Shown piece by piece: positions 10,471-47,139 of a stretch of DNA of 47,700 nt. A program made the position numbers and the translations under genes. The notes under the pieces were generated by a model. That model was not told the origin of the DNA. It was given only the letters and a program-made list of their open reading frames with translations, and searched no databases. The DNA is taken from positions 1-47,700 of the forward strand of contig CAZBWP010000002.1 in NCBI GenBank assembly GCA_964495295.1, written 5' to 3'. How positions within the stretch are numbered: position 1 is the stretch's first letter; each line of letters begins with the position of its first letter. The stretch comes from an uncultured Rhodospirillaceae bacterium. Lineage in GTDB: Bacteria > Pseudomonadota > Alphaproteobacteria > Rhodospirillales > Defluviicoccaceae.

Positions 10471-10566
10471 TCGGGCATCGAAGGGCCGATCGTCCTCGAA
10501 CGCACGCCAGCCCCACCGCCATCGCACCAGCCGGCCCGCGCCGGCGCCCACGGTCGGCGCCACTCC

Positions 10567-10608
10567 CACAGCCCCAGCCACAGCCCCAGCCACAGCCCCA
10601 ACCACAGG
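10567..10608. repeat. 12-bp tandem repeat x3.5 (CACAGCCCCAGC)
   Basis: Units at 10567-10578, 10579-10590 and 10591-10602 (one mismatch), then a partial fourth. Lies in the 153-bp spacer between xrtA-epsI and the amidotransferase. Confidence 0.85.
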
Positions 10609-10623
10609 CACGGACAAGCCCGC

Positions 10624-12564: not shown

Positions 12565-12689
12565 GCCCGACCCGCGGCGATGGCGCACGGAGCTTGGCGA
12601 AGCCTGCCGGCGCCGGCGCTGGTTGGGGTCCGGACCCGTGTTTACGGGTTGACTTGGCGCGGGGACACGGCGATACATTAGGAAGAGGG

Positions 12690-12713
12690 ATGATCTTAGT
12701 GTCAGGTCAATGA
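12690..12713 (+). promoter_or_regulatory. candidate leader mini-ORF MILVSGQ upstream of leuA
   Basis: AGGAAGAGGG precedes ATG ATC TTA GTG TCA GGT CAA TGA. This gives consecutive Ile-Leu-Val codons, with Leu encoded by TTA in a very GC-rich context, 222 nt upstream of the leuA ATG. Confidence 0.4.
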
Positions 12714-12831
12714 GCGCATCGCACTCAGTCGAGAACGGGAGGGACGGTGGTCCCGCCGGAGCCGGTCGGTTCCGGATCGTCCTGGGTGCGTCTCGCGCTG
12801 CTCTACCGCTCACGGGCCTTCGACTTATCGG

Positions 12832-12878
12832 CCCCTGAACGCGCGACCACCCGCGCTTGGGCTGGCTGCGTTCAGGGG
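12832..12878 (+). promoter_or_regulatory. 11-bp stem-loop in the leuA leader
   Basis: CCCCTGAACGC (12832-12842) pairs perfectly with GCGTTCAGGGG (12868-12878). An upstream GGGCC...GGCCC hairpin overlaps its 5' arm, giving possible alternative structures. Confidence 0.4.
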
Positions 12879-12934
12879 GAAAGTGGCGCCGTTCCGACCG
12901 CTTCCTTAAGTTGCGACACGAAGGACCCGAAATC

Positions 12935-14485
12935 ATGAGCACGAACAGCGATCCCGATCGCGTCATCATCTTCGACACGACCATGCGCGACGGCGAGCAA
13001 TCGCCGGGCGCGTCCATGAACCTGGACGAAAAACTGAAGATCGCCGCCATCCTCGAGGAACTGGGCGTCGACGTCATCGAGGCCGGGTTTCCGGCCGCTT
13101 CGCCCGGCGATTTCGAGGCGGTGCATGCGATCGCCCGATCGGTGACGGAGTCGACGGTCTGCGGCCTCAGCCGCGCCGGCCGCGGCGACATCGAGCGGAC
13201 CGCCGAGGCGATCAAGCCGGCGGCGCGCGGCAGAATCCACACGTTCATCGCCACCAGCCCGCTGCACATGCAGTACAAGCTGAAGCTCTCGCCCGACGAG
13301 GTGCTGGAGCGCATCGTCGACAGTGTGACGTTCGCCCGCCAGTTCACCGACGACGTGGAGTGGTCGTGCGAGGACGGGTCGCGCAGTGAGCACGACTTCC
13401 TCTGCCGCTGCGTGGAGACGGCGATCGCCTGCGGCGCCCGCACCATCAACGTGCCGGACACGGTCGGCTATGCGGTGCCGGACGAGTTCGCGGCGTTGAT
13501 CGCGATGCTGCGCAACCGCGTCCCGAACATCGATCGGGCCGTTCTGTCGGTGCACTGCCACAACGATCTGGGGCTGGCCGTCGCCAACTCCCTGGCGGCG
13601 GTGCGCGCCGGGGCCCGGCAGGTGGAGTGCACCATCAACGGGCTCGGGGAACGCGCCGGCAACGCGGCGATGGAAGAGATCGTCATGGCGCTGCGCACCC
13701 GCCGCGACTTCATGCCGTACACGACCGGGATCAGGACCGAGCACTTCATGCGGGCCTCGCGCCTGGTCTCCGCGGTGACCGGCTTCGTGGTGCAGCCCAA
13801 CAAGGCGATCGTCGGCGAGAACGCCTTCCGGCACGAATCGGGGATCCACCAGGACGGCATGCTGAAACATGCCGGAACCTACGAGATCATGACCCCGGAG
13901 TCCGTCGGCCTGCAGAAATCGACGCTGGTGCTGGGCAAGCTGTCAGGCCGCAACGCGTTCCGCGAGAAGCTGAAGGAACTGGGCTACGAGCTGGGCGACA
14001 ACGCGCTCACCGACGCCTTCGACCGGTTCAAGCGTCTGGCCGACCGCAAGCGGGAGATCTTCGACGAGGACATCATCGCACTGGTCGACGATGAAGTGAT
14101 GCGCGTCAACGACCGCATCAACTTGGTCTCCATGGACCTGACGTGCGGCACCCGCGAGCCCCGGGCGCGCATCGAACTCGCGATCGACGGCGCGGTCGAG
14201 GCCTGCGAAGCCAGCGGCGACGGTCCCGTCGACGCGGCGTTCCGCTGCATCCGTCAATTGGTGCCGACGGAGGCACGCCTGCAGCTCTATCAGGTGCACG
14301 CCGTCACCGGCGGCACCGATGCCCAGGCCGAGGTCACGGTGCGACTCGATGAGCATGGACGCACCGTAAACGGGCGCGGCGCCGACACCGACACCATGGT
14401 GGCGTCGGCGAAAGCCTACGTGAACGCGCTGAACAAGTTGTTGGTCAAGCGGGAGAAAACCGCGCCGTCGGCGCGGACCGCCTGA
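12935..14485 (+). CDS. leuA: 2-isopropylmalate synthase
   Basis: [28 protein letters not shown]..., [17 protein letters not shown], and a C-terminal LeuA dimerisation/regulatory domain. Start ATG 12935 was chosen inside the longer track ORF. Confidence 0.95.
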
Positions 14486-14539
14486 TTGCGCCGCGCGACG
14501 GCCTTGTCAACCGCCGGCCGTCGTGTACAAACCGACTAA

Positions 14540-15664
<1,125 letters not shown>

Positions 15665-25933: not shown

Positions 25934-28900
25934 ATGATCATCAGTCAGGCTGCCCCAGCGACGTTCGCCGACGGCGCGGAGACCGCGATCGATGGCAAGC
26001 GATGGTCCTTCTGGGTCGACCGGGGCGGCACGTTCACGGATATCGTCGGGCTGCGCCCCGACGGCTCCCTGGTCACCCGCAAGCTTTTGTCCGAGAACCC
26101 GGAGCACTACGACGACGCAGCGGTGCATGGGATCCGCGAACTGCTCGGGCTGGCGGCAGATCAGCCGATGTCGTCCGACGTGGTTGAGCACGTCAAGATG
26201 GGCACCACCGTGGCGACGAACGCGCTGCTGGAGCGCAAGGGCGAGCCGACGCTGCTGGTCGTCACCCGGGGATTTCGGGACGCGCTCCGGATCGGCTACC
26301 AGAACCGCCCGCTGATCTTCAGCCTGCAGATCACCCGTCCGCCGGCGCTCTACCATGCGGTGATGGAGGTCGACGAGCGGATCGGCGCCGACGGCACCAT
26401 CCTCCGCCCGCTCGACGTGACCGCAGCACGCCGGGACCTGGAGGCAGCCTTTGCGCAGGGCCTCCGGTCCGTCGCCATCACGCTGATGCACGGCTACCGG
26501 TTCACCGATCACGAGGAGCGGATCGAGAAGATCGCCCGCGATATCGGGTTCACCCAGGTCAGCGCCAGCTACCGGGTGAGCCCGCTGATGAAGTTCGTTT
26601 CGCGCGGCGATACCACCGTGGTCGACGCGTACCTGTCGCCGGTGCTGCGCCGCTATGTGGATCACCTGTCCAACGAGTTGGGCGGCGTCCGGCTGTTCTT
26701 CATGCAGTCGAACGGCGGCCTGACGGACGGGCGGCTGCTGAAGGGCAAGGACGCCATCCTGTCGGGACCGGCAGGCGGCATCGTCGGCGCAGCGCGCACC
26801 GCGGGGATCGCCGGTTTCGACAAGATCATCTCGTTCGACATGGGGGGCACCTCCACCGATGTCGCCCACTACAACGGCGAATACGAGCGCGAATTCGAAA
26901 CGGAACTGGATGGCGTTCGCCTGCGCGTGCCGATGCTGCAGATCCATACCGTCGCCGCCGGCGGCGGCTCGATCCTCAGCTTCGATGGCGCCCGCTTCCG
27001 CGTCGGCCCGCAATCCGCCGGTGCCAAGCCTGGCCCGGCCAGCTACCGACGCGGGGGTCCGCTGACCCTGACCGACGCCAATCTGCTGCTCGGCCGGATC
27101 TCACCCGATCTGTTCCCGAAGGTCTTCGGCGCGAGCGGCACCGAGGGGCTGGACGCCGCGACGGCTTTCCAGGCCTTCCAGGCTCTCACCGCCGACGTCG
27201 AACGGCACACCGGACGGAAGACGACGGCGGAGGAGGTGGCGCTCGGCTTCCGCCGCGTCGCCGTCGAAAACATGGCGAATGCCATCAAGAAGATCTCGAC
27301 GCAGCGCGGCTATGACATCACCCGCTACACGCTCACCTGCTTCGGCGGCGCCGGCGGTCAGCACGCCTGCGACATCGCCGATACGCTCGGCATGTGCAGG
27401 ATCTTCGTGCATCCGCTCGCCGGCGTGCTCTCGGCGTACGGCCTCGGCCTCGCCGATCTGCGGGCGATGCGCGAGCAGGCGATCGAGAAGCCGATCACCC
27501 AGCACCTGGTGCTCCAGCTCCGTCACCAACTGGCGCAGATGGCCACCGAGGCCCTCGCCGAAGTGAAGCGGCAGGGCCATGACGGCGGCGACGTGATGGC
27601 GATCAGCCGCGCGCATCTTCGCTACGAAGGCAGCGACACGCCACTGATCGTCGAGTTCGCCGATTATCGGAGCCTGATCGAGCGGTTCGAGGTGGCGCAC
27701 CGGCAACGCTTCGGCTTCCTGATGCCCGACAAGGGCCACATCATCGAGGCGATTTCGGTTGAGGCGGTCGGCATCGTCACCACCGAGGAAACGGTCAGCG
27801 AGGTGACGCAGCGGCAGATGCCGCTCGCACCGCTGGCCAGCACCCGCGTCTACGCGAGCGGATGTTGGACGTCGGCGCCGGTCTATCGCTATCGGGACCT
27901 GCAGCCGGGCGATCGCATCGAGGGCCCGGCGATCATCATCGAGCCGAACAGCACCATCGTCGTGGAGAGCGGCTGGGCCGGCTCGCTCACCGGACGCAAG
28001 CACCTGGTGATGACGCGGACGCAGCCGCTCGCCCGCGACCACGCCGTCGGCACCAGCGTCGATCCGGTCATGCTGGAGATCTTCAACAACACGTTCATGT
28101 CCATCGCCGAGCAGATGGGCGTGATCCTTCAGAACACCGCATATTCAGTGAACATCAAGGAACGGCTCGATTTCTCCTGCGCCGTCTTCGACGCGGCCGG
28201 CAATCTCGTCGCCAACGCCCCGCACATCCCGGTGCATCTCGGCTCCATGGGCGAGAGCGTCCGCGCCATCATCGCCGCCAACGGCGGACGGATCCGGCCC
28301 GGCGATGTCTTCGCCATGAACACGCCGCTGAAGGGTGGCACCCATCTGCCCGACATCACGGTGATCACGCCGGTGTTCGATACCGCCGACGCGCAAATCC
28401 TGTTCTACGTCGCCAGCCGCGGCCACCACGCCGATGTCGGCGGGATCACGCCGGGATCGATGCCGCCCAACAGCCGCACGCTCATGGAAGAGGGTGCGAT
28501 CATCGACAACTTCAAGCTGATCGACGCGGGACGCTTCCGCGAGCGGGAGATGATCGACGTGCTGCTCGCCTCGCCGTATCCGGCGCGCAATCCGCAGCAG
28601 AACATCTTCGATCTTCGCGCCCAGGTCGCGGCCAACGAGAAGGGCGTGTGCGAGCTTCGGAAGCTCGTCGACGACTATGGCCTCGACGTGGTCAACGCCT
28701 ACATGACGCACGTCCAGGACAACGCGGAAGAGCAAGTCCGGCGGGTCTTCGAACACCTCAAGGGCGGCAAGAGCACCGCCTACATGGATGACGGCGAGCA
28801 GATCACCGTCGACATCACCATCGACCGGACCCGGCGGCGTGCCCGCATCGACTTCTCGGAAAGCAGTCCCGAGCAGCCCAACAACTTCAACGCCCCGTTG

Positions 28901-29749
28901 GCGGTCTGCCGGGCCGCTGTGCTCTACGTCATCCGCAGCCTCGTCAAGGATGACATCCCGCTGAACGAGGGCTGCCTCAAGCCGGTCGACATCGTTGTGC
29001 CGAAAGGCTCGATCCTCAATCCCCGGGACGGAGCGGCGGTCGTCGCCGGCAACGTGGAAACGAGCCAGGTGATCTGCAACGCGCTCTATCGGGCGCTCGG
29101 CGTGATGGCCGGCTCCCAGGGGACGATGAACAACTTCACCTTCGGCAATGGCGCCTACCAATACTATGAAACCATTGGCGGTGGTTCCGGCGCCGGCGCC
29201 GAGTTCGACGGTGCGGACGCGGTCCACACCAACATGACGAATTCGCGGCTCACCGATCCGGAGGTGCTGGAATGGCGCTATCCGGTGCTGGTCGACAGCT
29301 TCGAGGTGCGCGAGGGATCCGGCGGCCGCGGGCGGCGGAGCGGCGGCAACGGCCTGGTGCGGCGCATTCGGTTCATCGAACCGATGACCGCGGCGATCGT
29401 CTCCGGATACCGGGTGGTCGAGCCGCAGGGCGTCGACGGCGGCAGGCCGGGCAGGGTCGGCCGCAACCGCGTCGAACGCGCCGATGGCACGACCCAGGAG
29501 CTCGCCGGAACGGATTGCGTCGACATGCAGCCGAACGACGTTTTCGTGATCGAAACGCCGGGAGGTGCTGGGTTCGGTGCTCCGCGGGAGGCCGAGGCGA
29601 TCCGACCGGCCCGCGCGCCGCACCGGGAACCGGCCCCGATGGTCGGCGAGACCCGGGAGGCAGGACAGAGCGACGATGTCGAGCGGACGCACGGGTCGGG
29701 CTGTGTGGCCTGTCGCGCCCGATATGGAGCGGACGCGCTTGGTGTCTGA
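25934..29749 (+). CDS. 5-oxoprolinase (ATP-hydrolysing), fused hydantoinase A/B (HyuA-HyuB) type
   Basis: 1271-aa ORF. The N-terminus has [17 protein letters not shown]. The hydantoinase A region has DMGGTSTDV. The hydantoinase B half has [20 protein letters not shown]...[14 protein letters not shown]. Confidence 0.9.
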
Positions 29750-29849
29750 TAGCCGCCGAACCGCCTCCCGACGCCGATGCCGGCCCGTGCGCTTCGGTCC
29801 GCCCGGCGACCGCGATGCGCTCGCTGCGGCCAACGGAAAGTCACCCGCG

Positions 29850-30839
29850 ATGACCACGCTGAGAAACCTGTTCTTATGGCTGGCGGCCGCGGTGTTATTG
29901 GCACCGGCCGCGCTCGCCGAAACCTGGCAGATGCCGACACCGTATCCGGTGAACAGCTTCCATACGGAGAACATTCAACGGTTCGCGCGGGACATTGAAG
30001 AGGCAACGGGCGGATCGCTGCGGATCGAGGTGCACCCGGCCGGCGCGTTGTTCCGGCACGCCGACATCAAGAACGTCGTGCGCTCCGGACAGGTGCAGAT
30101 CGGCGAATTCCTGTTGTCCCGACTGGCCAACGAGCACCCGATGTTCGAGGTCGACTCGCTGCCGTTCGTCGCCACCGACTACGAGGCGGCGGCGCGCCTG
30201 TGGACCAGCTCCCGGCCGTACGTCCAGGAGCTTCTCGCCCGACAGGGTCTGGTCGTGCTGTTCGCCGTGCCGTGGCCGCCGCAGGCGCTGTTCACCCGCA
30301 AGCCGGTGGAGAGCGTCGCCGACCTCAAGGGCGTCAGGCTGCGCGCGTACAACCGGACGCAGGAGCAGTTCGCGCGCCTCGCCGGCGCCATCCCGACCCA
30401 GGTCGAGGTGCCGGATGTCCCGCAGGCGTTCGCCACCGGTCGGGTGGAGGCGATGATCACGTCGCCGTCGACCGGCGCCAACGCGCGGGCCTGGGAGTTC
30501 GTGTCCCACTACTACGACACGCGGGCCTGGCTGCCAAAGAACGTGGTCGTCGTCAGCAAGCGGGCCCTGGACGGGCTCGATTCCCCCATCCGCGACGCGG
30601 TCATCGCCGCCGCCGCCGCCGCCGAACAGCGTGGCTGGGCGATGAGCCGGGCGGAAACCGACGCGCAGGTGGCGATCCTGAGGGACAGCGGCCTCACCAT
30701 CGTCGAGCCCAACCGGGACCTGGTGCGGCAACTGCACGACATCGGCGACACGCTGATGGCCGACTGGCTCGCGCAGACGGGGGTCAATGGAAAGGCGCTG
30801 TTGGCCCGGTTCCGCTCGGACCTCCGGGTCAGCCGCTGA
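29850..30839 (+). CDS. dctP: TRAP transporter substrate-binding protein (DctP family)
   Basis: Signal peptide MTTLRNLFLWLAAAVLLAPAALAETW, then a DctP-like body, followed by Q and M subunits. Start ATG 29850 was chosen inside the longer ORF. Confidence 0.85.
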   Translation: MTTLRNLFLWLAAAVLLAPAALAETWQMPTPYPVNSFHTENIQRFARDIEEATGGSLRIEVHPAGALFRHADIKNVVRSGQVQIGEFLLSRLANEHPMFEVDSLPFVATDYEAAARLWTSSRPYVQELLARQGLVVLFAVPWPPQALFTRKPVESVADLKGVRLRAYNRTQEQFARLAGAIPTQVEVPDVPQAFATGRVEAMITSPSTGANARAWEFVSHYYDTRAWLPKNVVVVSKRALDGLDSPIRDAVIAAAAAAEQRGWAMSRAETDAQVAILRDSGLTIVEPNRDLVRQLHDIGDTLMADWLAQTGVNGKALLARFRSDLRVSR

Positions 30840-30886
30840 CCTTGGATGCCTTGGACAGGCGGCAGCCGGCCGCCCGGGAGGCTGCG

Positions 30887-31474
30887 ATGCGCCGGATCCT
30901 GACGTTCCTCTATCGCGGCAGCGGCGGCCTCGCCGCGGCGTTCCTCGTGCTGACGTGCGGCGTGGTGGTGACGCAGGTGGCATTCAACCTGATCGGCGTC
31001 GTCGCGGATCGCGTGTTCGGCGTGACCGTCAGCCTTGTGGTGCCGTCCTACGCCGACTTCACCGGATACTTCTTCGCCGCCTCCGCGTTCCTTGGCCTGG
31101 GTTACGTCCATCACGCCGGGGCTCACATCCGGGTTGCCATCCTGATGGACCGCACCCGGGGCCGGGGGCGCGCGGCGGTCGAGATCTGGTGCCTCTGTGT
31201 GGCGGTGTTCCTGGCCGGGTACTTCACCTGTCACGCATTTGCCCTCGTGCGCGATTCGTACCGCTTCAATGACCTGTCGGTCGGTTTGGTCGCGGTGCCG
31301 CTGTGGCTGCCACAGATGGCCATGGGCGTCGGCGCCCTGGTGGTCACCATCGCGCTGTTCGACGATCTGGTCACGGTCGTCGCCGGCCACGTTCGCCGCG
31401 GCCTGCGGCAGCGAGGTTCGGCGCCCGTCGCACGCTCCCCGATGCCGCGGCCGAGAGCCGCCGGCCCGGTCTGA
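30887..31474 (+). CDS. dctQ: TRAP transporter small permease (DctQ family)
   Basis: 195-aa ORF with four hydrophobic helices, lying between the dctP and dctM homologues. ATG at 30887. Confidence 0.8.
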   Translation: MRRILTFLYRGSGGLAAAFLVLTCGVVVTQVAFNLIGVVADRVFGVTVSLVVPSYADFTGYFFAASAFLGLGYVHHAGAHIRVAILMDRTRGRGRAAVEIWCLCVAVFLAGYFTCHAFALVRDSYRFNDLSVGLVAVPLWLPQMAMGVGALVVTIALFDDLVTVVAGHVRRGLRQRGSAPVARSPMPRPRAAGPV

Positions 31475-31487
31475 GGCGACCCGGCGC

Positions 31488-32792
31488 GTGGATCCCACTT
31501 GGGTGGCGCTGTGCACCGTCGTCGTGCTGCTGGTGTTTCTCGCCAGCGGGTTGTGGGTGGCGCTCGCCCTGATGGCCACCGGTTTCGCCGCCATGGCCCT
31601 GTTCACGTCGGCGCCCGTCGGCCCGGTGATGGCGACGTCGATCTGGGGCGCGACCAATTCATGGGCGCTCGCCGCCATTCCGCTGTTCATCTGGATGGGT
31701 GAGATCCTGTCGCGGTCGCGCGTGTCCGAGCACCTGTTCAACGGTCTCGCGCCGTTGCTGCGACGGGTGCCCGGCGGCCTGATCCACATCAACGTCCTCG
31801 GCTGCGGGCTGTTCGCCGCCGTTTCCGGATCATCGGTGGCGACGGCGGCGACGCTCGGACGCATCACCGTGCCGGCCCTGCTCTCCCGCGGCTATCCGGA
31901 ACGCCTGACGCTCGGCTCGCTCGCCGGCTCCGGGACACTCGGGTTCCTCATCCCGCCGTCGATCATCCTGATCGTCTATGGCGTCGCCGTCGACGAATCC
32001 GTGGTCCGGCTGTTCCTCGCCGGGATCATCCCCGGCCTCGTGCTGATGGTGCTGTTCAGCGGCTATGTGGTGGTGTGGTCGGTGGTCAATCGTGAACGCA
32101 TGCCGCCGCCGGATCCCGCCCAGAGCCTCGGCACGCGCGTTCGGGGAATGGCGAAGCTGCTGCCGATCCTCGCCCTCATCGTCGGCATTCTCGGGTCGAT
32201 CGAACTCGGCATCGCCAGCCCGACGGACGCGGCGGCGGTCGGCGTGGTGTTGGCGTTGATCCTGTCCTGGAGGTCGCGGACCCTTGACTGGCCGTCGTTC
32301 GCCGGCGGACTCACGGGAGCGATCCGCACCTCCTGCATGATCGCCTTCATCCTGATCGGCGCGTCCTTCCTCACCGTCGCCATGGGGTTCACCGGCGTGC
32401 CGGGGTCCCTGGCGGCGTCGATCGGTGCCATGAACCTGTCGGCGGAGGCGCTGATCGTTGCCTTGACCGTGCTGTTCGTGATTCTCGGATGCTTCCTCGA
32501 CGGCATCTCCATGGTCGTGCTCACCACGGCGGTCATCCTGCCGCTCATCGAGACCGCCGGCATCGACCGCATCTGGTTCGGCATCTACCTGGCGGTGGTC
32601 GTCGAGATGTCGCAGATCACGCCGCCGATCGGCTTCAACCTCTTCGCCATCCAGGGAATGACCGGTCGCAACGTCCTCGTGCTGGCGCGGGCGGCGCTGC
32701 CGTTCTTCTGCATGCTGCTGCTGCTGATCGTGCTGCTGGTGCTGTTCCCCGGACTCGCCACCTGGCTGCCCAACCACTTGGCGACCCCGTGA
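31488..32792 (+). CDS. dctM: TRAP transporter large permease (DctM family)
   Basis: About 434-aa polytopic protein with typical DctM segments (PLFIWMGEIL, SGSSVATAATLG, VVEMSQITPPIGFNLF). The GTG 31488 start is inferred. Confidence 0.87.
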   Translation: MDPTWVALCTVVVLLVFLASGLWVALALMATGFAAMALFTSAPVGPVMATSIWGATNSWALAAIPLFIWMGEILSRSRVSEHLFNGLAPLLRRVPGGLIHINVLGCGLFAAVSGSSVATAATLGRITVPALLSRGYPERLTLGSLAGSGTLGFLIPPSIILIVYGVAVDESVVRLFLAGIIPGLVLMVLFSGYVVVWSVVNRERMPPPDPAQSLGTRVRGMAKLLPILALIVGILGSIELGIASPTDAAAVGVVLALILSWRSRTLDWPSFAGGLTGAIRTSCMIAFILIGASFLTVAMGFTGVPGSLAASIGAMNLSAEALIVALTVLFVILGCFLDGISMVVLTTAVILPLIETAGIDRIWFGIYLAVVVEMSQITPPIGFNLFAIQGMTGRNVLVLARAALPFFCMLLLLIVLLVLFPGLATWLPNHLATP

Positions 32793-32895: not shown

Positions 32896-34137
32896 ATGTC
32901 TGACAGTCACGCTCTGCCCCTGGATCATGAGCGCAGGATCATTGTCGGCGGCGACCGCCGTCTGCTGCATCGCGGCGACGACGGACGACGCGGCGACGAT
33001 GCCGCGCCCACGCACAACAGCCTGCCGCCGGCGTCGGTCGCAGCGGGACGCACCCTCGACCGACCCGGGACGTACCTTGTCGTCCTCGGCGTGGCCTTCG
33101 TCGTGCTGTGGGGCGCCATCATCGCGGCCAACCAGCGGCTCAATCCGCTGGTCTATGACCCGACCGCGCAGGCCGAGGTGGCCGAGGCGCTCGTCGCTGG
33201 GCAGAGCTACGGCGTGTTTGACCTGAACATCGACATGCGGGGGCTGCGCCGCGAACACATCAAGCGGCTGCCGGCGGCGCCCGAGATCGCGGTCATCGGC
33301 GCCAGTCACTGGCAGGAGGGCGTCAGCAGCCTGTTCCCGGACCAGGACTTCTACAACGCGCACGTCCACCGGGATTACTACGAGGATATCCTGGCGGTCG
33401 TCGAAATGTTCGTCGCCAGCGACCGGCTGCCCGAAACGCTGATCATCAGCATCCGCGAACTCACCTTCTCGCCGCCGGCGGAGCGCACCGACTTCCTCTG
33501 GCTCGCCGGCCTCGAAGACTATCGGGCGATGGCCCGGCGCCTCGGCATCGAGCCGCACGGCTGGCTGGACACCTTCAGCATCACCCCGTGGCTGGACCTG
33601 ACCTCGCTGCCGGCGGCGTGGGATGGCGCCCGGCGATGGCTGCTGGCCGACGAACGACCGGGGCCGACGACTCGGGTCACGGCGCAGAGCCTCGACATCC
33701 TGCATCCCGCAGGGTTCATCACCTGGTCCGAGGACCACGAGGCGCTGTTCACCCAGGCGCGCGCGGTCGACGAGGCGCAGAAGGAGTTCGACTTCTCGAA
33801 GGGGCGGCGCATTGCCATCGATGCGGCCGCCGTCGACGCCATCGACCGGCTGCTCGGCTTTCTTGTCGAACGCGGCGTGCACGTGATCCTCGTGCATCCC
33901 CCGTTCAATCCCGTCTACCACGACCAACTCGTCCAAACGCCTTACGGCGACGACATGCAACGGGTTGTCGACGTCACCGCCGGCCTCGCCGCGCGGCATG
34001 GGCTGTCCGTGATCGGAAGTTTCGATGCAACGGCGATCGGCTGCGATCGCGACATGTTCATCGACTCCCAGCACGGCCGCCCCGAGTGCCTGGGCAAGCT
34101 GATCTCGCGGATGCCGCTCCGAAAATCACAGGACTGA
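32896..34137 (+). CDS. membrane-anchored DltD-like / SGNH-like protein (putative periplasmic acyl- or aminoacyl-transferase)
   Basis: Single N-terminal TM segment (YLVVLGVAFVVLWGAIIAA), then a soluble domain with a candidate nucleophile motif VIGASHW and a C-terminal DSQH (DxxH) motif. It sits directly upstream of the MBOAT, carrier protein and adenylation enzyme. The functional call is inference. Confidence 0.5.
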   Translation: MSDSHALPLDHERRIIVGGDRRLLHRGDDGRRGDDAAPTHNSLPPASVAAGRTLDRPGTYLVVLGVAFVVLWGAIIAANQRLNPLVYDPTAQAEVAEALVAGQSYGVFDLNIDMRGLRREHIKRLPAAPEIAVIGASHWQEGVSSLFPDQDFYNAHVHRDYYEDILAVVEMFVASDRLPETLIISIRELTFSPPAERTDFLWLAGLEDYRAMARRLGIEPHGWLDTFSITPWLDLTSLPAAWDGARRWLLADERPGPTTRVTAQSLDILHPAGFITWSEDHEALFTQARAVDEAQKEFDFSKGRRIAIDAAAVDAIDRLLGFLVERGVHVILVHPPFNPVYHDQLVQTPYGDDMQRVVDVTAGLAARHGLSVIGSFDATAIGCDRDMFIDSQHGRPECLGKLISRMPLRKSQD

Positions 34138-34255
34138 CCGTGGGACCGTCCGGCAGAAGTCTCGCAGCCGATCCTCTGGGGCCGCGCACGACCGCGCGCC
34201 CCGGCCCGGATCGGGCGCGCACCGCCAGGGGATCAGAAGGGGAGGGCACAGGGCG

Positions 34256-35794
34256 ATGATGTTCCACTCTTACCAGTTCATTTTCGGGTTCCTGCCGCTG
34301 ACGTTTCTCGTGTTCTGCCTCGCGGTTCACCTGCGGGGATGGCAGGCGGGACTGGTCACGTTGGGGTTGGCCTCGGTCGTCTTCTATGGCCAGTTCAGCG
34401 TGGCACTCGCCGCGATGCTGGTGGGCTCGATCATCGTCAACTTCGGCTTCGTGCGCCTGCTCGAGGCCCATCGGGACCGGAGACGCCTGGCGTCGATGCT
34501 GTTCAGCACGGCGGTCGTCGGCAATCTGGGCTACCTCGGATACTTCAAGTACGCCAACTTCTTCATCGACAACCTGAACGCGGCCGGGGGTCTCGGCATC
34601 CCGTATCTCGCGATCATCCTGCCGGTCGGGATCTCGTTCTACACGTTCGTGCAGATCGGTTTCCTGGCGGAGGTGCATGCCGGCCAGGTGCGCGGCGTGA
34701 AGTTCAGCCACTATTTCCTGTTCAGTTCGTTCTTCCCGTGCGTGACGGCGGGGCCGATTCTTCTGCAGAAGGAGATGATGCCTCAGTTCACGAAGAACGA
34801 CACCGCCGTCTGGAACAGTCTGCGGATCTCCGTCGCGCTTACGGTATTCACCATCGGCTTGTTCAAGAAACTGGTGCTCGGCGACAGCATCGCGCCCTAC
34901 GCGGACCTGGTGTTCAACGGTGTCGCCGACGGGGCCGTCGTCTCGGCGGGGGCGGCGTGGATCGGCGCGCTCGCCTATACGCTGCAGCTCTACTTCGATT
35001 TCTCCGGCTATTCGGACATGGCGCTCGGCATCGGCTACCTGTTCGGCCTGCGCTTGCCCTTGAACTTCAACTCACCGCTGAAGGCGACCAGCATCATCGA
35101 CTTCTGGCGTCGCTGGCACATGACGATGACGCGGTTCTTCACCAATTTTCTCTACACGCCGATCGGCATCCCGCTGATGCGGCGCGCCATCAGGAACGGC
35201 TACAGCCCCGGCACGCGATTCCTCGTCGCCGTCGCCGGCCCGATCACCCTGACCATGGTGCTGGCCGGCCTGTGGCACGGGGCCGGCTGGACGTTCGTGG
35301 TGTTCGGTCTCCTGCACGGTCTCGCGCTGGCGGTGAACCACGCCTGGCGTCAGTACGGACCGTCCGGCCTGCCGCGGCCTGCCGGGTGGCTGATGACCAT
35401 GGCGGTGGTGGTGACCGGAATGGTGATCTTCCGGGCGGCCGACCTGTCGGTCGCCGGCGCCATGCTCGCGTCGATGACCGGGTTGGCGTCGCTGACCGAG
35501 GCCGCACCGGCGGTCGCCGCCGCGGTCACCGGTGGGTTCGTGACCGTCGACGCCGGTCCGGCGCTGGCGCTGATCGTGGCTCTCGGTTCCATCGCGCTCG
35601 TCCTGCCCAACACCCAGGAACTGATGCGCGACCACATCTTCAGCAGCGATGGCGACGCCGCCCTGGCCGCGGATCGCGGTTCCCGCGTGGCGTGGCGGCC
35701 GTCGGTGCGCTGGGCCGCCGCGACCGGTGCCCTGTTGGTGGTCGCCCTCGGACTGGTCTCGGGGGACAGCACCTTCATCTACTACCATTTCTAG
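34256..35794 (+). CDS. MBOAT family O-acyltransferase (DltB/AlgI-like)
   Basis: MMFHSYQFIFGFLPL start, DFSGYSDMA, the conserved His segment FWRRWHMTMTRFFTNFLYTPIG, and GLWHGAGWTFVVFGLLHG. Confidence 0.9.
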   Translation: MMFHSYQFIFGFLPLTFLVFCLAVHLRGWQAGLVTLGLASVVFYGQFSVALAAMLVGSIIVNFGFVRLLEAHRDRRRLASMLFSTAVVGNLGYLGYFKYANFFIDNLNAAGGLGIPYLAIILPVGISFYTFVQIGFLAEVHAGQVRGVKFSHYFLFSSFFPCVTAGPILLQKEMMPQFTKNDTAVWNSLRISVALTVFTIGLFKKLVLGDSIAPYADLVFNGVADGAVVSAGAAWIGALAYTLQLYFDFSGYSDMALGIGYLFGLRLPLNFNSPLKATSIIDFWRRWHMTMTRFFTNFLYTPIGIPLMRRAIRNGYSPGTRFLVAVAGPITLTMVLAGLWHGAGWTFVVFGLLHGLALAVNHAWRQYGPSGLPRPAGWLMTMAVVVTGMVIFRAADLSVAGAMLASMTGLASLTEAAPAVAAAVTGGFVTVDAGPALALIVALGSIALVLPNTQELMRDHIFSSDGDAALAADRGSRVAWRPSVRWAAATGALLVVALGLVSGDSTFIYYHF

Positions 35795-35936
35795 GATCGA
35801 ACGCATGCCGCCGACGGCATTCCCGGGTGACCGCCCGACGTGGCTCACCCGATCATCGGGACATGACGGCCGCTCATGACGCTGGACGCCAACATCGTGC
35901 TTTTTGCGGACTCCGCAAGAATACTGGAGAATTCCC

Positions 35937-36167
35937 ATGACCCTGCTTGAAGACGTCGCCGCCGCCGTGCTGAAGCGTTCCCGCGACGAGATCAACGATG
36001 AGACGAGCCCGAAGACCGTGCCGTCTTGGGACAGTCTTCGTCACATCGAGCTGGTGATGACGGTCGAGCAGGCATTCGGCGTCATTTTTCCGCCGGCCGA
36101 AGTCATGACCATGACGTCGCTGGGCGCCATCCGTCAGGTGCTGCGGCAGAAGGGGGTCCATGTCTGA
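35937..36167 (+). CDS. acyl/aminoacyl carrier protein (DltC-like, phosphopantetheine-binding)
   Basis: 76-aa ORF with a four-helix-type pattern and the attachment motif SWDSLRHIELV. GGAGA RBS upstream of ATG 35937. Confidence 0.85.
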   Translation: MTLLEDVAAAVLKRSRDEINDETSPKTVPSWDSLRHIELVMTVEQAFGVIFPPAEVMTMTSLGAIRQVLRQKGVHV

Positions 36168-36245
36168 AAGCGGCCGCCGCGCCGTGGCCTCGGGCACTTC
36201 GGCAGCGCTGTCGAATCGACTGTTTGATTGGGGAGTGAAATCGCG

Positions 36246-38567
36246 ATGTTGGAGCTGATCGCTGCCGCTCAGGGGGCCGAGGCGGAATCGAAGACGCATC
36301 GGGGAGATGGTAACGATGCGCTTTTTGCAAGGCGCCTGGCGGCGTTCGCGCCGGCGCAGTTTTCGGAAGCCGAAGTCTACCGGGCGGACGCCGAGGTTGG
36401 GGTCTTCGGCCGTGAACGGGAGCGGACGATTGCATTTGAGGATCTTGTCGAGCCCCTGCTGAGCATCCATGCCGGACAGGACATCGAGGATATCGTCCTG
36501 GCCATCGTCGCGACCTATCTGTTTCGCACGTCCGGTGAAAGCCAGCTTTGCCTCCCGATCGCGGCCGGGAAAGACACGGCGGGGGCGATCGGGACGGAGA
36601 ACGCCTTCGTCCCCGTCCTCGTGCAGATTTCGCCAACCGCGCCGTTCGCGGCGGTCGTCGAGGCGGTTCGGGCGGAACGCGCGCGGGGCGCGGCACTTCG
36701 CCCCGTCGCGTTCTCCACCCTGGATCGCATCTCCGCGGCGGGTGGCGCCGGCGAGGCCTGGGCCCGGCCGTTGCCGCTCCTGATCAGCGCGACCAGCGGA
36801 CCGCCGGGCCGGTCCATCGACCGCGCCGCAACGCACCTCTGGTTCGATCGGGCGCGGCGAACGCTGGGCATACGCTTTCCGGGGTCGCTGTCGGCCGAGT
36901 TCGGCACCGCCGTCGCCGATCACCTGTGCGAACTGGCACGGGCCATCGCCGCCAGGCCCGCGGCGCCCGTCGCCGACCTCGACTACCTCTCGGCGGCGGA
37001 ACGGCACCGCATCCTCATCGCCTGGAACGACACCGGGGCCGATTTCCGCGACGCGGGCGGACTGATCGAGCAGTTCGAACACCAGGTGGCGGCCAATCCG
37101 GAGCATCCCGCGGTGCTCTACCAGGGCCGGTCGCTGACCTATGCGGCGTTCAACGGTCGGGTCAACCGGCTCGCCCACCATCTGCGGCGGTCGGGCGTCG
37201 GCGCCGACACGTTCGTCGCCATCTGTCTCGACCGGTCCGTGGACATGGTCGTCGCCATCTGGGCGATCCTGAAGGCCGGCGGCGCCTACGTGCCGCTCAA
37301 CGTCGAGGATCCGCCGCAGCGCCTCGCCGCGATCATCGGCAATGCCGGTGCGCGCATCATCCTGACCGAAGAGAAGTTCGTCGACAAGCTGCCGAAAACC
37401 GGGACGCGGCTCGTCCTCCTGTCACCGGAAGGCGCGGAGATCGCCCAAGAAAGCGCCAGCAATCCGGACCACGTGATCAAGAAGAATGATCTCGCCTACA
37501 TGATCTATACGTCCGGGTCGACGGGCGAGCCGAAGGGCGTTCTCATCGAGCACGAAGCGATCACCAATCGCATCGTCTGGATGCAGAACGAGTATCGGCT
37601 GACGCCCGAGGATCGCGTCCTGCAGAAGACGCCATACACGTTCGACGTTTCGGTCTGGGAGTTCCTGTGGCCGCTGTCGGTCGGCGCCGGGCTGGTGGTC
37701 GCCGAGCCGGGCGGTCATGTCGTGCCGAGCTATCTGTCCCGCCTGATCCAACAAGAACGCGTGACGTGTCTGCACTTCGTGCCGTCGGTGTTGCGCCTGT
37801 TCCTGGCGTGTCCGCCAGCGAAGGACTGTCCGCTTAGGATGGTCTTCTGCAGCGGCGAAGCGCTCAGCCACGAGCTGCAGGAGCAGTTCTTCACCCACTA
37901 CAACGCGGACCTGCATAATCTGTACGGCCCGACCGAGGCGGCAGTCGACGTCACCTTCTGGCAGTGCGACCGGCAGAAGCATCGCGGTCGCGTGCCGATC
38001 GGCAAGCCCATCGCCAACATCCGCATGCACATCCTGGATGAGGGCTTGCGGCCGGTACCGCCGGGGGTGGCTGGCGACCTCTATATCGGCGGCGTCGGTC
38101 TGGCGCGCGGTTACTGGAACAAGCCGGAGCTGACAGCTGAGCGGTTCATCGACGATCCGCTGGGGATCGGCATGGCCGGCAAGCTCTACCTCACCGGGGA
38201 CGTCGCCCGGTACCTGCCCGACGGCAACATCGAGTACCTGGGCCGCAACGATCATCAGGTGAAGGTCAACGGCATCCGCATCGAACTGGGCGAGATCGAG
38301 TCCGTGATCCGGCTGCATCCCGCCGTTCAGGACGCCGTGGTGATCACCGACAAGGCCGACGGCGGCAATGCCCAGTTGCTGGCGTTTCTGGTGCCGAAGG
38401 CGGAGGGCACCGGCGGCGCGGCGCTAGACCACTTGCGCGATTTCCTGGAGCAACGGCTGCCGCCGCACATGATCCCGCGGCGGCTGAACCACATCAGCCG
38501 CATTCCGCTCACGGTCAGTGGCAAGGTCGACCGCAAGGCGCTGGCGCAGTTGGCGGTGGCGGCATGA
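36246..38567 (+). CDS. adenylation enzyme (NRPS-type A domain, DltA-like role) with a truncated N-terminal condensation-like domain
   Basis: A-domain core motifs: LTYAAFNGRVNRLA, YMIYTSGSTGEPKG, FDVSVWE, NLYGPTE, GDLYIGGVGLARGY, YLTGD, GRNDHQVKVNGIRIELGEIE and SGKVDRKAL. The N-terminal ~265 aa resemble the C-terminal subdomain of a C domain and end in the C-A linker LSAAERHRILIAWNDT. No HHxxxDG motif is present. GGGGAG RBS before ATG 36246. Confidence 0.88.
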   Translation: MLELIAAAQGAEAESKTHRGDGNDALFARRLAAFAPAQFSEAEVYRADAEVGVFGRERERTIAFEDLVEPLLSIHAGQDIEDIVLAIVATYLFRTSGESQLCLPIAAGKDTAGAIGTENAFVPVLVQISPTAPFAAVVEAVRAERARGAALRPVAFSTLDRISAAGGAGEAWARPLPLLISATSGPPGRSIDRAATHLWFDRARRTLGIRFPGSLSAEFGTAVADHLCELARAIAARPAAPVADLDYLSAAERHRILIAWNDTGADFRDAGGLIEQFEHQVAANPEHPAVLYQGRSLTYAAFNGRVNRLAHHLRRSGVGADTFVAICLDRSVDMVVAIWAILKAGGAYVPLNVEDPPQRLAAIIGNAGARIILTEEKFVDKLPKTGTRLVLLSPEGAEIAQESASNPDHVIKKNDLAYMIYTSGSTGEPKGVLIEHEAITNRIVWMQNEYRLTPEDRVLQKTPYTFDVSVWEFLWPLSVGAGLVVAEPGGHVVPSYLSRLIQQERVTCLHFVPSVLRLFLACPPAKDCPLRMVFCSGEALSHELQEQFFTHYNADLHNLYGPTEAAVDVTFWQCDRQKHRGRVPIGKPIANIRMHILDEGLRPVPPGVAGDLYIGGVGLARGYWNKPELTAERFIDDPLGIGMAGKLYLTGDVARYLPDGNIEYLGRNDHQVKVNGIRIELGEIESVIRLHPAVQDAVVITDKADGGNAQLLAFLVPKAEGTGGAALDHLRDFLEQRLPPHMIPRRLNHISRIPLTVSGKVDRKALAQLAVAA

Positions 38568-38615: not shown

Positions 38616-40220
38616 ATGCACCGGGCAGTCTGGGCCGAGAGCTTTGTCGCGCCATTCCCGTCGGCGGTCGCGGGACTCCGCCAGATCGCCGGATTCGATG
38701 CCTTCGAGGCGCTGGAGGCGATGGGCGACGCCGTCGTCTACTTCGACGCCGAGGACCGGCTGATCGGCTGCAACGACAAGTATCAGGAGCTTTATGGCGC
38801 GGCGCCCGAAGGCATCGTCCCAGGCGCGCGCTTCTCCGAACTGTTGCGGACGGCCGTGGCACAAGGCCAGATCGACGTGGAGAAGCGGTCGCCGGAGGAC
38901 TACGTGGCCTGGCGCCTCGCCCTGCGCCGTCTGCCGATGTCGAGATTCGACCTGCGCCTTCGCGATGGCCGCTACCTCCGGGTCAGCGAACGGCGGACCA
39001 GCAACGGCGGCCGCGTCGGGGTCCACACCGATGTGTCCGAGCTCAGGGATCGGGAGAACGCGCTGAAGGCGATCGGCGACGCTCTGGCAAGACAGAACGT
39101 TTTGTTCGACGCGGCGCTCAACAACATGCTGCAGGGCCTGTGCATGTTCGACGATCATCAACGGCTGATCGTCGTCAATCGGCGCTATCTCGACATGTAC
39201 GGGTTCTCGCCCCAGGTCGTGAAGCCGGGCATCACGCTCCGCGAGATCATGGAATACAGCGTCGCGCTCGGCAACTACACGCACGACGACGGCGTCCGGG
39301 CCCTCGCCGAGCGGCCGTCGCAGGCGGCGAAGCGCGAACACGTGGTCACGCTGCAGCGCCTGCGCGACGGCCGCGTCATCGCGGTCATGCATTCGCCGCT
39401 GCCGAACGGCGGCTCGGTGGCGACCTACGAGGACGTCACGCAGCGCGAGCGGAGCGAGGCGACGCTGCGCGACTATGCCGCGCGCCTGGAAGACAGCAAC
39501 CGGGAACTGCAGTCCTTTGCCTTCGTTGCCTCCCACGATCTGCAGGAACCGCTGCGCAAGATCGAGGCGTTCAGCGATCGGCTGAAGGCCAAGTACGGCG
39601 AGACGCTGGGCGATGACGGCGCGATGTATCTGGAGCGGATGCACAACGCCGCCGGCCGCATGCGGCGACTGATCACCGACTTGCTGCGTTATTCGCGGGT
39701 GACCACCCAGGCCCAGCCGTTCGAGCGCGTCGAACTGCAACGCGTCGTCGGCGACGTGATCTCGGACCTGCAGATCGCGATCGAAGAGTGCGGCGGGACG
39801 ATCGACGTGGCGCCGCTGCCGATCATCGAGGCGGACGCGACCCAGATCCGCCAGCTTTTCCAGAATATCCTGAGCAATTCTTTGAAGTTCAGAAAGCAGG
39901 ACGTGGCGCCGCGCATCTCCATTTCGGGCAGCATCTTTGTCAGGGACGCGGACGCCGAGGCGCCGGAGGACTATTGCCGGTTGGTCATTGCCGACAACGG
40001 GATCGGCTTTGACAACAAGTACGCCGAACGGATCTTCACGATCTTCCAACGGCTCCATGGCAAGACTGAATACGATGGAACGGGCATCGGATTGGCGACG
40101 GTGCGAAAAATCGTCGACCGCCACCGCGGGTCCATCACGGCGGAGGGAGCCCTGGGCGAAGGGGCGACCTTCACCATCATACTGCCGGCGCAGCAAGCAT
40201 CACAGGAGAAGAATCGATGA
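38616..40220 (+). CDS. cytoplasmic PAS-PAS sensor histidine kinase
   Basis: Two PAS-like modules (VVYFDAEDRLIGCNDKYQELYG and LCMFDDHQRLIVVNRRYLDMYG), H-box FAFVASHDLQEPLRKI, and HATPase motifs NSLKF, DNGIGF and GTGIGLATV. No TM segments. Confidence 0.9.
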   Translation: MHRAVWAESFVAPFPSAVAGLRQIAGFDAFEALEAMGDAVVYFDAEDRLIGCNDKYQELYGAAPEGIVPGARFSELLRTAVAQGQIDVEKRSPEDYVAWRLALRRLPMSRFDLRLRDGRYLRVSERRTSNGGRVGVHTDVSELRDRENALKAIGDALARQNVLFDAALNNMLQGLCMFDDHQRLIVVNRRYLDMYGFSPQVVKPGITLREIMEYSVALGNYTHDDGVRALAERPSQAAKREHVVTLQRLRDGRVIAVMHSPLPNGGSVATYEDVTQRERSEATLRDYAARLEDSNRELQSFAFVASHDLQEPLRKIEAFSDRLKAKYGETLGDDGAMYLERMHNAAGRMRRLITDLLRYSRVTTQAQPFERVELQRVVGDVISDLQIAIEECGGTIDVAPLPIIEADATQIRQLFQNILSNSLKFRKQDVAPRISISGSIFVRDADAEAPEDYCRLVIADNGIGFDNKYAERIFTIFQRLHGKTEYDGTGIGLATVRKIVDRHRGSITAEGALGEGATFTIILPAQQASQEKNR

Positions 40221-40684
40221 CGTTCCAAGGGAAGGCGATTACGATCCTTGTTGCTGATGATGATGCCGATGACAGATTGTTGATACGTGAGGCGTTTGAA
40301 GAAAACAAGATCGAGAACGATGTGAACTTTGTCGAAGATGGTGAGCAGCTTTTGGCGTATCTCCGGCGGGAGGGCGAGTATGGTAAGCTGGAGGGCCGGC
40401 CATACCCTGGTCTTGTGCTTCTGGACCTGAACATGCCGAAAAAGGACGGCCGGGAAGCGCTGGCCGAGATCAAGGCCGATCCGCAGCTTGTGCAAATCCC
40501 TGTCGTCGTGCTGTCCACGTCGAAAGCCGAAGACGATATAGAACATGCATACGGCCATGGCGTCAGTTCGTTCATTACGAAGCCGGTGACATTTGACCAA
40601 TTGGTTCAGTTGACTCGTATTCTGACGGCTTACTGGTTTGATGTCGTGGAACTGCCACCACAATGCGTGTCGCGCCTGCATTGA
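40217..40684 (+). CDS. single-domain response regulator (receiver only)
   Basis: ILVADDDADD, phospho-acceptor context LVLLDLNMPKKDG, VVVLSTS and FITKP. ATGA overlap with the kinase stop. Confidence 0.9.
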   Translation: MTFQGKAITILVADDDADDRLLIREAFEENKIENDVNFVEDGEQLLAYLRREGEYGKLEGRPYPGLVLLDLNMPKKDGREALAEIKADPQLVQIPVVVLSTSKAEDDIEHAYGHGVSSFITKPVTFDQLVQLTRILTAYWFDVVELPPQCVSRLH

Positions 40685-40697
40685 AGCGGAACAGCGG

Positions 40698-43268
<2,571 letters not shown>

Positions 43269-46806: not shown

Positions 46807-47139
46807 CTACGCGGCTTCCGGATAGACGATGACGGCGTTGCGGCCGCCGATGGCGCGCGCCGCGGAGCGCTCGAAGCCGCGCAGGCGTTGGGCCACCACC
46901 CCTCCATCGACGATGCCTCCCGAGGCGGCGATATCAGCGCGGACGAGGTTCACGATCGCCTGGTCGCCGCCGGCGCTCTCGCCAAAGCGGGCCACGTCGG
47001 CCGCGTAACGATCGGCCTCCGCGTCGGCCATGTTCAACTCGCCGGCAGCCCACAGGCCGACGAGGTAGTTGCGGAGGAAGCGGACGGCGTCGGTGGCCAC
47101 GCGGTGACCGTCGAGCGGGGTCGAGGCGTTGGGCCTCAT
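46807..47139 (-). CDS. DUF1476 family protein (ATP synthase inhibitor zeta-subunit-like)
   Basis: 110 aa. FLRNYLVGLWAAGELNM..AEADRYAADVARF...IVNLVRADIAASGG parallels the RNRLLGEWAA...ARAYA...DFDEPGDEDV pattern of the Paracoccus zeta subunit as I recall it. Confidence 0.5.
   Translation of the reverse strand: MRPNASTPLDGHRVATDAVRFLRNYLVGLWAAGELNMADAEADRYAADVARFGESAGGDQAIVNLVRADIAASGGIVDGGVVAQRLRGFERSAARAIGGRNAVIVYPEAA

Follow-up and report, generated by a model that had tools for sequence, protein, structure and literature searches.

A carrier-protein-linked MBOAT-SGNH gene module in an uncultured Rhodospirillaceae bacterium and its predicted role in envelope aminoacylation

Introduction

What is a set of genes resembling the Dlt system, known for its action on the teichoic acids of Gram-positive bacteria, doing in the genome of a Gram-negative alphaproteobacterium? 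The question is raised by a stretch of 47,700 nucleotides (nt) from an uncultured Rhodospirillaceae bacterium (GCA_964495295.1, contig CAZBWP010000002.1; hereafter the window), in which four co-oriented open reading frames (ORFs) of the + strand, here called g1 to g4, occupy positions 32896-38567. A first-pass annotation, made from the DNA letters, had read them as a DltD/SGNH-like protein, an MBOAT (membrane-bound O-acyltransferase), a small carrier protein and an adenylating enzyme, that is, as the parts of Dlt in the inverted order D-B-C-A. Both the component calls (checked with Pfam and NCBIfam, and for g1 by its fold) and the inverted order were borne out. The answer that we propose is that the module is probably a carrier-protein-fed MBOAT-SGNH acyl-transfer pathway which aminoacylates an extracytoplasmic component of the envelope. 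The evidence comes from the identity of the four products, from an acyl-shuttle motif found at the end of the MBOAT, and from the exchange, among related loci, of the enzyme that would load the carrier.

The four genes are separated by gaps of 118, 142 and about 60-78 nt, the last depending on the start of g4, and a further 48 nt lie between g4 and a histidine kinase gene, HK1. There are no terminator-like sites within these gaps, and a promoter scan was uninformative (two matches, with 1.0 expected). The nearest relative in the genome collection is another uncultured Rhodospirillaceae metagenome-assembled genome (MAG), L001, with 83-93% protein identity over the four module genes (84% for g1).

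An MBOAT with a fused acyl-shuttle tail

The product of g2 (34256-35794, + strand; 512 residues) belongs to the MBOAT family (PF03062, E 8.9e-17) and carries two histidine motifs, His288 in RWHM and His341 in WHG, both of which align with DltB, so that the DltB/AlgI-type histidine segment claimed for it is present. DltB (6bug/8jem, E 4e-31) is also the only match among PDB sequences; the score against the DltB equivalog model TIGR04091, 173 bits, is far below its cut-off of 375. Past the DltB-like core there are two additional hydrophobic segments (residues 433-451 and 483-501), and the protein ends in the hexapeptide FIYYHF (residues 507-512, 35774-35791), whose Tyr509 is encoded at 35780-35782.

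This ending corresponds to the FxYxxF "acyl shuttle", which is found on the microprotein DltX in Dlt systems and, in MBOATs of the PatA/AlgI type, is fused to the enzyme after two extra helices; in PatA, the tyrosine of the motif has been shown experimentally to be the acyl acceptor (PMC12148441). The motif, in the form F[LIV]YYxF, is C-terminal in 63 of 64 MBOAT orthologs of g2. In a six-frame scan of the window, the C-terminus of g2 was the only peptide of the form F.Y..[FY]-stop, and no separate DltX-like peptide with FxYxxF was found. The missing DltX, already remarked upon in the first-pass annotation, is explained because the shuttle motif is fused to the MBOAT.

A divergent relative of DltD as the membrane-anchored partner

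The first gene, g1 (32896-34137, + strand), encodes 413 residues from an ATG, although an upstream TTG at 32866 is a possible alternative start. The product is predicted to cross the membrane once, with its N-terminus inside, and to expose a domain of SGNH/DltD fold to the periplasm; its single hydrophobic segment (residues 60-78) follows an arginine-rich tail. Scans with Pfam and NCBIfam gave no match, the DltD family PF04914 included; some of its homologs give sub-threshold PF04914 matches only, and all of the 186 homologs detected are annotated as "hypothetical". The putative catalytic residues are nonetheless strictly conserved: Ser137 (33304-33306), the predicted nucleophile, lies within GASHWQE, Asp390 and His393 lie within DSQH (34063-34074), and both GASHWQE and D390-x-x-H393 are invariant in an alignment of 40 homologs that share 38-84% identity with g1. 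The two blocks appear to have the block I and block V arrangement of SGNH enzymes.

An AlphaFold2 model built from the 40-sequence alignment (mean predicted local distance difference test score, pLDDT, 87.8; predicted template modelling score, pTM, 0.83) was compared with the PDB by means of Foldseek, and the ten best matches are DltD structures (7dxm, 3bma, 6o93, 6pfx; E 2e-5 to 2e-4), followed by SGNH esterases. The lack of such a fold or of a catalytic triad had been named beforehand as grounds for abandoning the DltD-like assignment of g1; a match to the fold and the invariant residues were both found. Because the global TM-scores to DltD are low (0.32-0.39), g1 is better regarded, on this model, as a divergent relative of DltD than as its ortholog. 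A full-library HMMER search with g1 retrieved 2214 cluster representatives at E≤1e-3, of which 130 reach E≤1e-30, and distant relatives of about 360 residues match the Pfam families DUF1574 (two of them above cut-off) and Lipase_GDSL_2, which we take to be members of the SGNH clan that also holds DltD. It was only through the fold search and these transitive matches that g1 could be placed.

Two further observations concern the N-terminus of this protein. The cytoplasmic tail (residues 1-58, 32896-33070) has a motif, DRRxLxRxxxGRR(xx)D, that is conserved across many homologs and might serve as a regulatory or ligand-binding site. A receiver domain at the N-terminus of longer homologs was considered as a general trait and discarded, since it occurs in only one of the 11 tested (P0092), where it takes the place of the tail motif.

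The carrier protein and its loading enzyme

The third gene, g3 (35937-36167, + strand), starts 8 nt downstream of a Shine-Dalgarno sequence, GGAG, and encodes the stand-alone carrier of 76 residues that the first-pass annotation had recognized by its WDSL site. It matches the PP-binding family (E 3.3e-6), and Ser33, within WDSL (36033-36035), is the predicted site of phosphopantetheine attachment. The protein is a generic PP-binding domain: its matches to acyl carrier proteins (ACPs) are weak, and no DltC chain is found among its PDB matches at E≤1, so that it does not qualify as DltC-type.

The fourth gene, g4 (36228-38567, + strand), encodes 779 residues if translation begins at TTG, but the likelier start is the ATG at 36246, which stands behind GGGGAG and gives 773 residues. 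The product contains AMP-binding (E 6e-92) and AMP-binding_C domains and matches many nonribosomal peptide synthetase (NRPS) structures in the PDB, with E-values down to 1e-212. The amino-acid adenylation model TIGR01733 scores 461 bits (cut-off 317), whereas the DltA models stay well below their cut-offs (TIGR01734, 273 bits against 560; NF003417, 292 against 476), which agrees with the earlier description of an NRPS-type enzyme rather than a classical DltA.

The N-terminal region of g4 (36228-37037) has no Pfam match. A profile of six orthologs, restricted to the first ~270 residues, aligns with the condensation (C) domain of Txo1 at about 230-460 (E 5e-9), with CDA-PS at 264-345 and with EntF at 240-331, and it is thus as a condensation-domain remnant, comprising the C-terminal lobe only, that the region can be read; the lobe bearing HHxxxDG is absent from it, both in the ortholog alignment and in the profile search. 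The adenylation (A) domain (37074-38567) runs from A1 to A10 and terminates just past the lysine of SGKVDR, the protein ending 13 residues beyond this A10 lysine, with neither a thiolation (T) nor a thioesterase (TE) domain. Lacking the catalytic C lobe and a T domain, g4 would therefore be unable to build a peptide alone; it appears to be a truncated C-A remnant, able only to charge a carrier in trans.

As to what is charged, EntF is the L-serine activator of siderophore synthesis, a full C-A-T-TE module. The specificity code of g4, whose prediction had been proposed at the outset, is DVWHFSLVDK; all eight orthologs recovered (41-83% overall identity) share it without change, and g4 has the same pocket residues as EntF at every aligned position (alignment to 5ja1), a match of 10 out of 10. 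The best PDB matches to the pocket region are FscH, an unnamed "Peptide synthetase" (8xjz), Txo2, Txo1 and EntF, and the adenylation domains of Txo1 and Txo2 are presumably serine-activating as well. L-serine is predicted as the substrate of g4 because its code is identical to that of EntF and invariant in the orthologs. The first-pass annotation had left the acyl group open, a point that the serine code closes in part.

Conservation of the module and exchange of the loading enzyme

Relatives of g1 were found in 118 species when one genome of each species was scanned by pattern, and the best 80 loci were analysed by tblastn and ORF clustering. All 80 are from Alphaproteobacteria, mostly MAGs (Hyphomicrobiales, Rhodospirillaceae, Geminicoccaceae, Neomegalonema, Roseibium, Anderseniella). 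The g1 relative adjoins the MBOAT gene in nearly all of them, and a carrier gene is present in 71, usually as the next gene after the MBOAT or with only a loading enzyme in between. Given that this g1-MBOAT-carrier synteny extends over nearly all the loci and over different alphaproteobacterial families, the arrangement does not appear to be due to chance.

The loading enzyme is the variable part. In 62 of the 80 loci the gene between the MBOAT and the carrier encodes a protein of about 403 residues that resembles seryl-tRNA synthetase (SerRS) and belongs to the amino acid:[carrier protein] ligases; in another 10, among them the clade of the window, this ligase is lacking and a g4 ortholog is found nearby. 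The two enzymes never occur in one locus; in four loci neither lies within range, and another four loci are truncated. There is no SerRS-like ligase in the window. The window would therefore represent a minority form of the system, in which g4 appears to be a non-orthologous replacement of the 403-residue ligase. Since two unrelated enzymes that load aminoacyl groups onto carriers have been exchanged at one position, the cargo of the carrier should be an amino acid destined for the MBOAT, and we consider this exchange strong comparative evidence for it.

The 403-residue protein is a truncated homolog of methanogen-type SerRS (Bll0957, 3mey, E 1.8e-33; type-2 SerRS, E 1.9e-30) that keeps the Cys/Glu/Cys zinc ligands. 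Its members share about 30% identity with the annotated ligases and at least 69% among the 120 best matches, which comprise close orthologs only. Those ligases of the Bll0957 type that have been studied biochemically are reported to load glycine or alanine, and a 2022 review describes the biological role of the family as unknown (PMC9437257). Canonical ligases were looked for beside an MBOAT and ruled out in the Azospirillum and Shinella loci, where the context is another one: the conserved cassette reads ACP, acyl-CoA dehydrogenase family protein, ligase, DUF1839 protein, GH2 family protein, with no MBOAT (5254-12920 of L082, Azospirillum brasilense Sp7 p2; 5525-11297 of L084, Shinella). A ligase homolog on a Bacillus plasmid has only an ACP beside it. 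The link between ligases and the module would thus be limited to the conserved 403-residue subfamily.

Outside the Alphaproteobacteria, the actinomycete Nonomuraea gerenzanensis (L081, NZ_LT559118, 11.85 Mb; locus 8905-15489) has the order g1-MBOAT-carrier-(C-A)-phosphopantetheinyl transferase (PPTase), that is, the same D-B-C-A order. There, the g1 motifs read GGSRW and DQIH, the MBOAT ends in FLYYRY, the PPTase is Sfp-type, and the C-A protein, of 1011 residues, has a fuller, Cy-like C domain (DLLIADADG versus HHxxxDG) and the A code DLYNVMLIWK. A separate observation was made on plasmid pSC52_6 of the Rhodobacteraceae bacterium SC52 (L085, 2781-7634), where an MBOAT with 39% identity to g2 is encoded together with an ACP, an FkbH-like HAD-IIIC protein and a hypothetical protein of 358 residues, next to sulfotransferase and acyltransferase genes. 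This cluster suggests that MBOAT systems fed by carrier proteins form a larger group, whose loading enzymes differ.

Proposed mechanism and alternative explanations

Domain identities, invariant residues, motif conservation, synteny and the displacement of the loading enzyme are directly visible in the sequences, and the best-supported mechanism that can be built on them runs from activation through loading of the carrier and passage by the MBOAT to transfer by the SGNH/DltD-like protein. In the first step, g4 would adenylate an amino acid, L-serine according to its code, and thioesterify it onto the phosphopantetheine arm at Ser33 of g3; in most relatives, this step would be carried out by the 403-residue ligase instead. 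The aminoacyl-S-g3 may then dock on the cytoplasmic face of g2, as its homology to DltB, the partner of DltC, suggests, and His288 and His341 would act as catalysts in moving the aminoacyl group through the membrane to Tyr509, in the FIYYHF tail of g2 itself. This is the shuttle job that the separate microprotein does in Dlt and the fused tail does in PatA and AlgI. From the tail, the group could pass to Ser137 of the membrane-anchored periplasmic g1, a step suggested by its fold and invariant residues. Finally, g1 would place it on a hydroxyl (or amine) group of an acceptor whose synthesis is encoded at some other place in the genome, with lipopolysaccharide, periplasmic glucan, exopolysaccharide, peptidoglycan and lipid as candidates. 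The direction of transfer along this relay is taken by homology from Dlt and PatAB, and is to that extent provisional.

Several points weigh against this pathway. The sequence of g1 has no significant match to DltD or to any Pfam family, its TM-scores to DltD are low, and the 40-sequence profile retrieved nothing relevant from the PDB sequences. The periplasmic location of the g2 tail is again inferred from Dlt and PatAB, and MAGs supply the majority of the related loci. The window contains neither a PPTase nor an MbtH-like gene, and no glycosyltransferase or other gene for the synthesis of an acceptor is conserved across the neighbourhoods of the 80 loci. The serine call is drawn from the specificity code, and the relatives that use the ligase may not carry serine; moreover, the ligase type known to prefer glycine or alanine sits in a different gene context that has no MBOAT.

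The likeliest alternative keeps the pathway as proposed and changes its cargo, which would be another amino acid (glycine, alanine) or a serine that undergoes modification on the carrier beforehand. The preference reported for Bll0957-type ligases (PMC9437257) speaks for it, as do the different code and the Cy-like domain of the Nonomuraea version and the conserved condensation-domain lobe that g4 retains with no assigned use. Against these stand the complete code match to EntF, with no variation in the eight orthologs, the descent of the displaced ligase from a SerRS whose zinc site it keeps, and the fact that no modifying enzyme is conserved across the loci. We therefore hold a cargo other than free serine to be unlikely.

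A second alternative separates the locus into two unrelated halves: the MBOAT and g1 would be an ordinary acetyl-CoA-dependent O-acetyltransferase pair, similar to PatA/PatB or AlgI/AlgJ, and the carrier and adenylating enzyme would do something else in the cytoplasm, for instance make a small NRPS-like product or a lipoamino acid. A fused FxYxxF tail is indeed typical of MBOATs that use acetyl-CoA, and not of DltB, and MBOATs 35-40% identical to g2 occur with no annotated carrier beside them, for instance in Skermanella. However, the carrier keeps its synteny with g1 and the MBOAT in those 71 loci, where two unrelated loading enzymes interchange; g4 is devoid of the catalytic C lobe, T and TE domains, and there are no other NRPS genes in the window; and, among solved structures, the MBOAT core has homologs only in the carrier-dependent DltB proteins. 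Taken together, these observations make two independent halves quite unlikely, and a single carrier-fed pathway the preferred reading.

As for g1, its transferase role and the periplasmic location of its domain are likewise assigned by homology to Dlt and PatAB, and it is very unlikely that it acts instead as a hydrolase (an esterase removing the group, or a thioesterase-like proofreader) while the MBOAT or some other protein acylates the acceptor: SGNH proteins are commonly hydrolases and the fold matches after DltD are esterases such as sialate O-acetylesterase, but no partner is linked to the MBOAT as tightly as g1, which has a membrane anchor as DltD and PatB do, and in both of the MBOAT-SGNH systems with a solved mechanism it is the SGNH protein that acts as the transferase (PMC12148441).

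Regulatory genes and genomic context

The kinase/regulator trio that the first-pass annotation placed 48 nt downstream of the module is found at 38616-43268, all on the + strand. It consists of HK1 (38616-40220), a soluble PAS_7-PAS_7 histidine kinase; a single-domain response regulator (40217-40684; Response_reg, E 1e-20), whose start overlaps the stop of HK1; and HK2 (40638-43268), a hybrid PAS_7 histidine kinase with receiver domains (kinase domains according to Pfam). In 67 of the 80 loci the module has orthologs of HK1 (at least 45% identity) and of the receiver within 8 kb, and homologs of HK2 adjoin the module in many. The positions and orientations of the kinase and receiver genes vary, which argues for selection and not for the inheritance of one operon, and the two-component genes thus appear to be evolutionarily linked to the module. 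A REC-PAS-GGDEF-EAL gene accompanies the module and the kinase/receiver genes in 34 loci (e.g., L002:71-2431), although none was found in the window, and its recurrence suggests that the phosphorelay feeds cyclic di-GMP (c-di-GMP) signalling. In the pathway proposed here, the relay of PAS kinase, receiver and hybrid kinase would either control aminoacylation or take its report, as the conserved neighbourhood indicates, with the REC-PAS-GGDEF-EAL protein joining in many relatives.

Directly upstream of g1 are the genes of a TRAP transporter (DctP, DctQ and DctM by Pfam; 29565-32792, + strand), whose association with the module is loose, an ortholog of DctM being present within 8 kb in 28 of the 80 loci. 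More frequent is a polytopic membrane protein of about 326 residues, F5, which is absent from the window but lies within 8 kb in 54 loci, in many of them directly upstream of g1 and co-oriented with it (e.g., L006:2265-3245, - strand; L008:6718-7716). Its invariant residues include W75, Q76 and the RN pair of an RNVGL motif; Pfam gave no match, and a profile search gave a non-significant full-length match to an ASBT-type transporter (E 0.35). F5 may belong to the pathway, perhaps as a transporter of acceptor or substrate.

The rest of the window fits an alphaproteobacterial origin. The G+C content of the window is 66-71%, and its genes include PBP2/RodA, TRAP transporters and, at 46807-47139 on the - strand, the zeta subunit of the ATPase inhibitor (PF07345), which as a marker fits that origin. 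No teichoic acid genes were detected among those window genes that were scanned. At 25934-29749 (+ strand), between genes of amino acid metabolism and the TRAP transporter, there is a fused hydantoinase A/B (5-oxoprolinase-like) gene for 1271 residues, and the gene is also found upstream of g1 in L001 and L007. An ORF of 1423 residues at 9190-13461 (- strand) has no Pfam match and a translation rich in arginine, histidine and aspartate; it was rejected as a gene, being an antisense artefact of the high G+C content.

Novelty and significance

Full-text literature searches yielded no description of this gene combination, in agreement with the earlier view that the architecture is uncharacterised, although their coverage of subscription papers is incomplete and a prior description is possible. 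MBOAT-SGNH pathways are currently split into Dlt, with a carrier donor, a separate DltX and Gram-positive teichoic acids as its target, and the others, which use acyl-CoA and a fused shuttle. The module bridges this division, and appears to be a hybrid that combines the carrier-protein donor of the first class with the fused shuttle of the second in Gram-negative Alphaproteobacteria.

A broader claim can be put forward, on which we are evenly balanced: that the module represents a previously unrecognised class of envelope aminoacylation, Gram-negative and present in at least one actinomycete, in which a carrier-bound amino acid (serine here) is exported by an MBOAT with a built-in acyl-tyrosine shuttle, a DltD-like enzyme joins it to a polymer or lipid of the envelope, and a phosphorelay and c-di-GMP circuit exerts control, the corollary being that the 403-residue ligases serve the same function. 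If true, this would be the first physiological role for one branch of the amino acid:[carrier protein] ligase family. The mutually exclusive occurrence of the A enzyme and the SerRS-like ligase ties one of its subfamilies to a concrete pathway. The module also predicts a hitherto unrecognised aminoacyl (seryl) decoration of the alphaproteobacterial envelope, which could affect surface charge, sensitivity to antimicrobial peptides or phages, biofilm formation and interaction with hosts. The prediction, which we expect to surprise specialists in envelope modification or in aminoacyl-tRNA synthetase paralogs, is testable with a handful of genes and with named residues: Ser33 of g3, His341 and Tyr509 of g2, and Ser137 of g1.

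Comparison with known systems

The Dlt system of Firmicutes (DltA, DltC, DltB, DltX and DltD) has the same flow as the module, from an adenylating enzyme to a free carrier, an MBOAT and a membrane-anchored protein of SGNH fold with serine, aspartate and histidine. The differences are numerous. The module proteins fall short of what defines DltA, DltB, DltC and DltX; the shuttle motif is on the MBOAT and not on a separate DltX; and DltB has about 400-425 residues and no fused shuttle tail, whereas g2 has 512, with extra hydrophobic segments. The carrier is loaded not by DltA but by an NRPS-derived partial C-A protein whose code is that for serine, a SerRS-like ligase taking its place in relatives; the gene order is D-B-C-A; a two-component and c-di-GMP gene set is linked to the module; and, the host being Gram-negative, the acceptor is presumably not teichoic acid. 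Because all the Dlt equivalog models remain below their cut-offs, the module appears to be Dlt-like in mechanism only and not an ortholog set of DltABCD, so that the component set first ascribed to it holds as a mechanism and fails as family membership.

With PatA/PatB and AlgI/AlgJ/AlgX, the module shares the Gram-negative setting, an MBOAT with two extra C-terminal helices and a fused FxYxxF, and a periplasmic SGNH partner, although g1 has no detectable sequence similarity to the partners of those systems. It displays the features of an MBOAT-SGNH pair, namely an MBOAT with catalytic histidine, a C-terminal FxYxxF and an adjacent, predicted SGNH-fold partner with a putative catalytic serine. 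Unlike them, it has a conserved carrier and a dedicated loading enzyme: MBOAT-SGNH pathways other than Dlt use an acyl-CoA donor and no carrier protein, according to a mechanistic paper of 2025 (PMC12148441), and the gene content of the locus, with both a carrier and a loading enzyme, departs from that pattern.

Among Gram-negative bacteria, carrier-dependent aminoacylation of an envelope component is carried out by Bordetella dra, the enterobacterial dlt operons and AlmEFG of Vibrio cholerae. True homologs of dltABCD, arranged in this order, make up the dra and dlt loci; AlmG acylates lipid A and is no MBOAT. Of these loci, Bordetella dra is mentioned in PMC9410548.

The loading enzymes, lastly, have relatives of their own. 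The one used by 62 of the 80 loci belongs to the same family as the amino acid:[carrier protein] ligases Bll0957 and Atu2573 and, like these, is encoded next to a carrier gene; the module-linked ligases are nevertheless a distinct subfamily of 403 residues, in an MBOAT context. g4 shares with EntF all the aligned pocket residues (DVWHFSLVD and the lysine) and differs from it in having half a C domain, no T or TE domain and no MbtH-like partner in the window. When compared with an NRPS module in general, g4 has the adenylation domain and lacks catalytic condensation and in-cis thiolation, the carrier being the separate protein g3.

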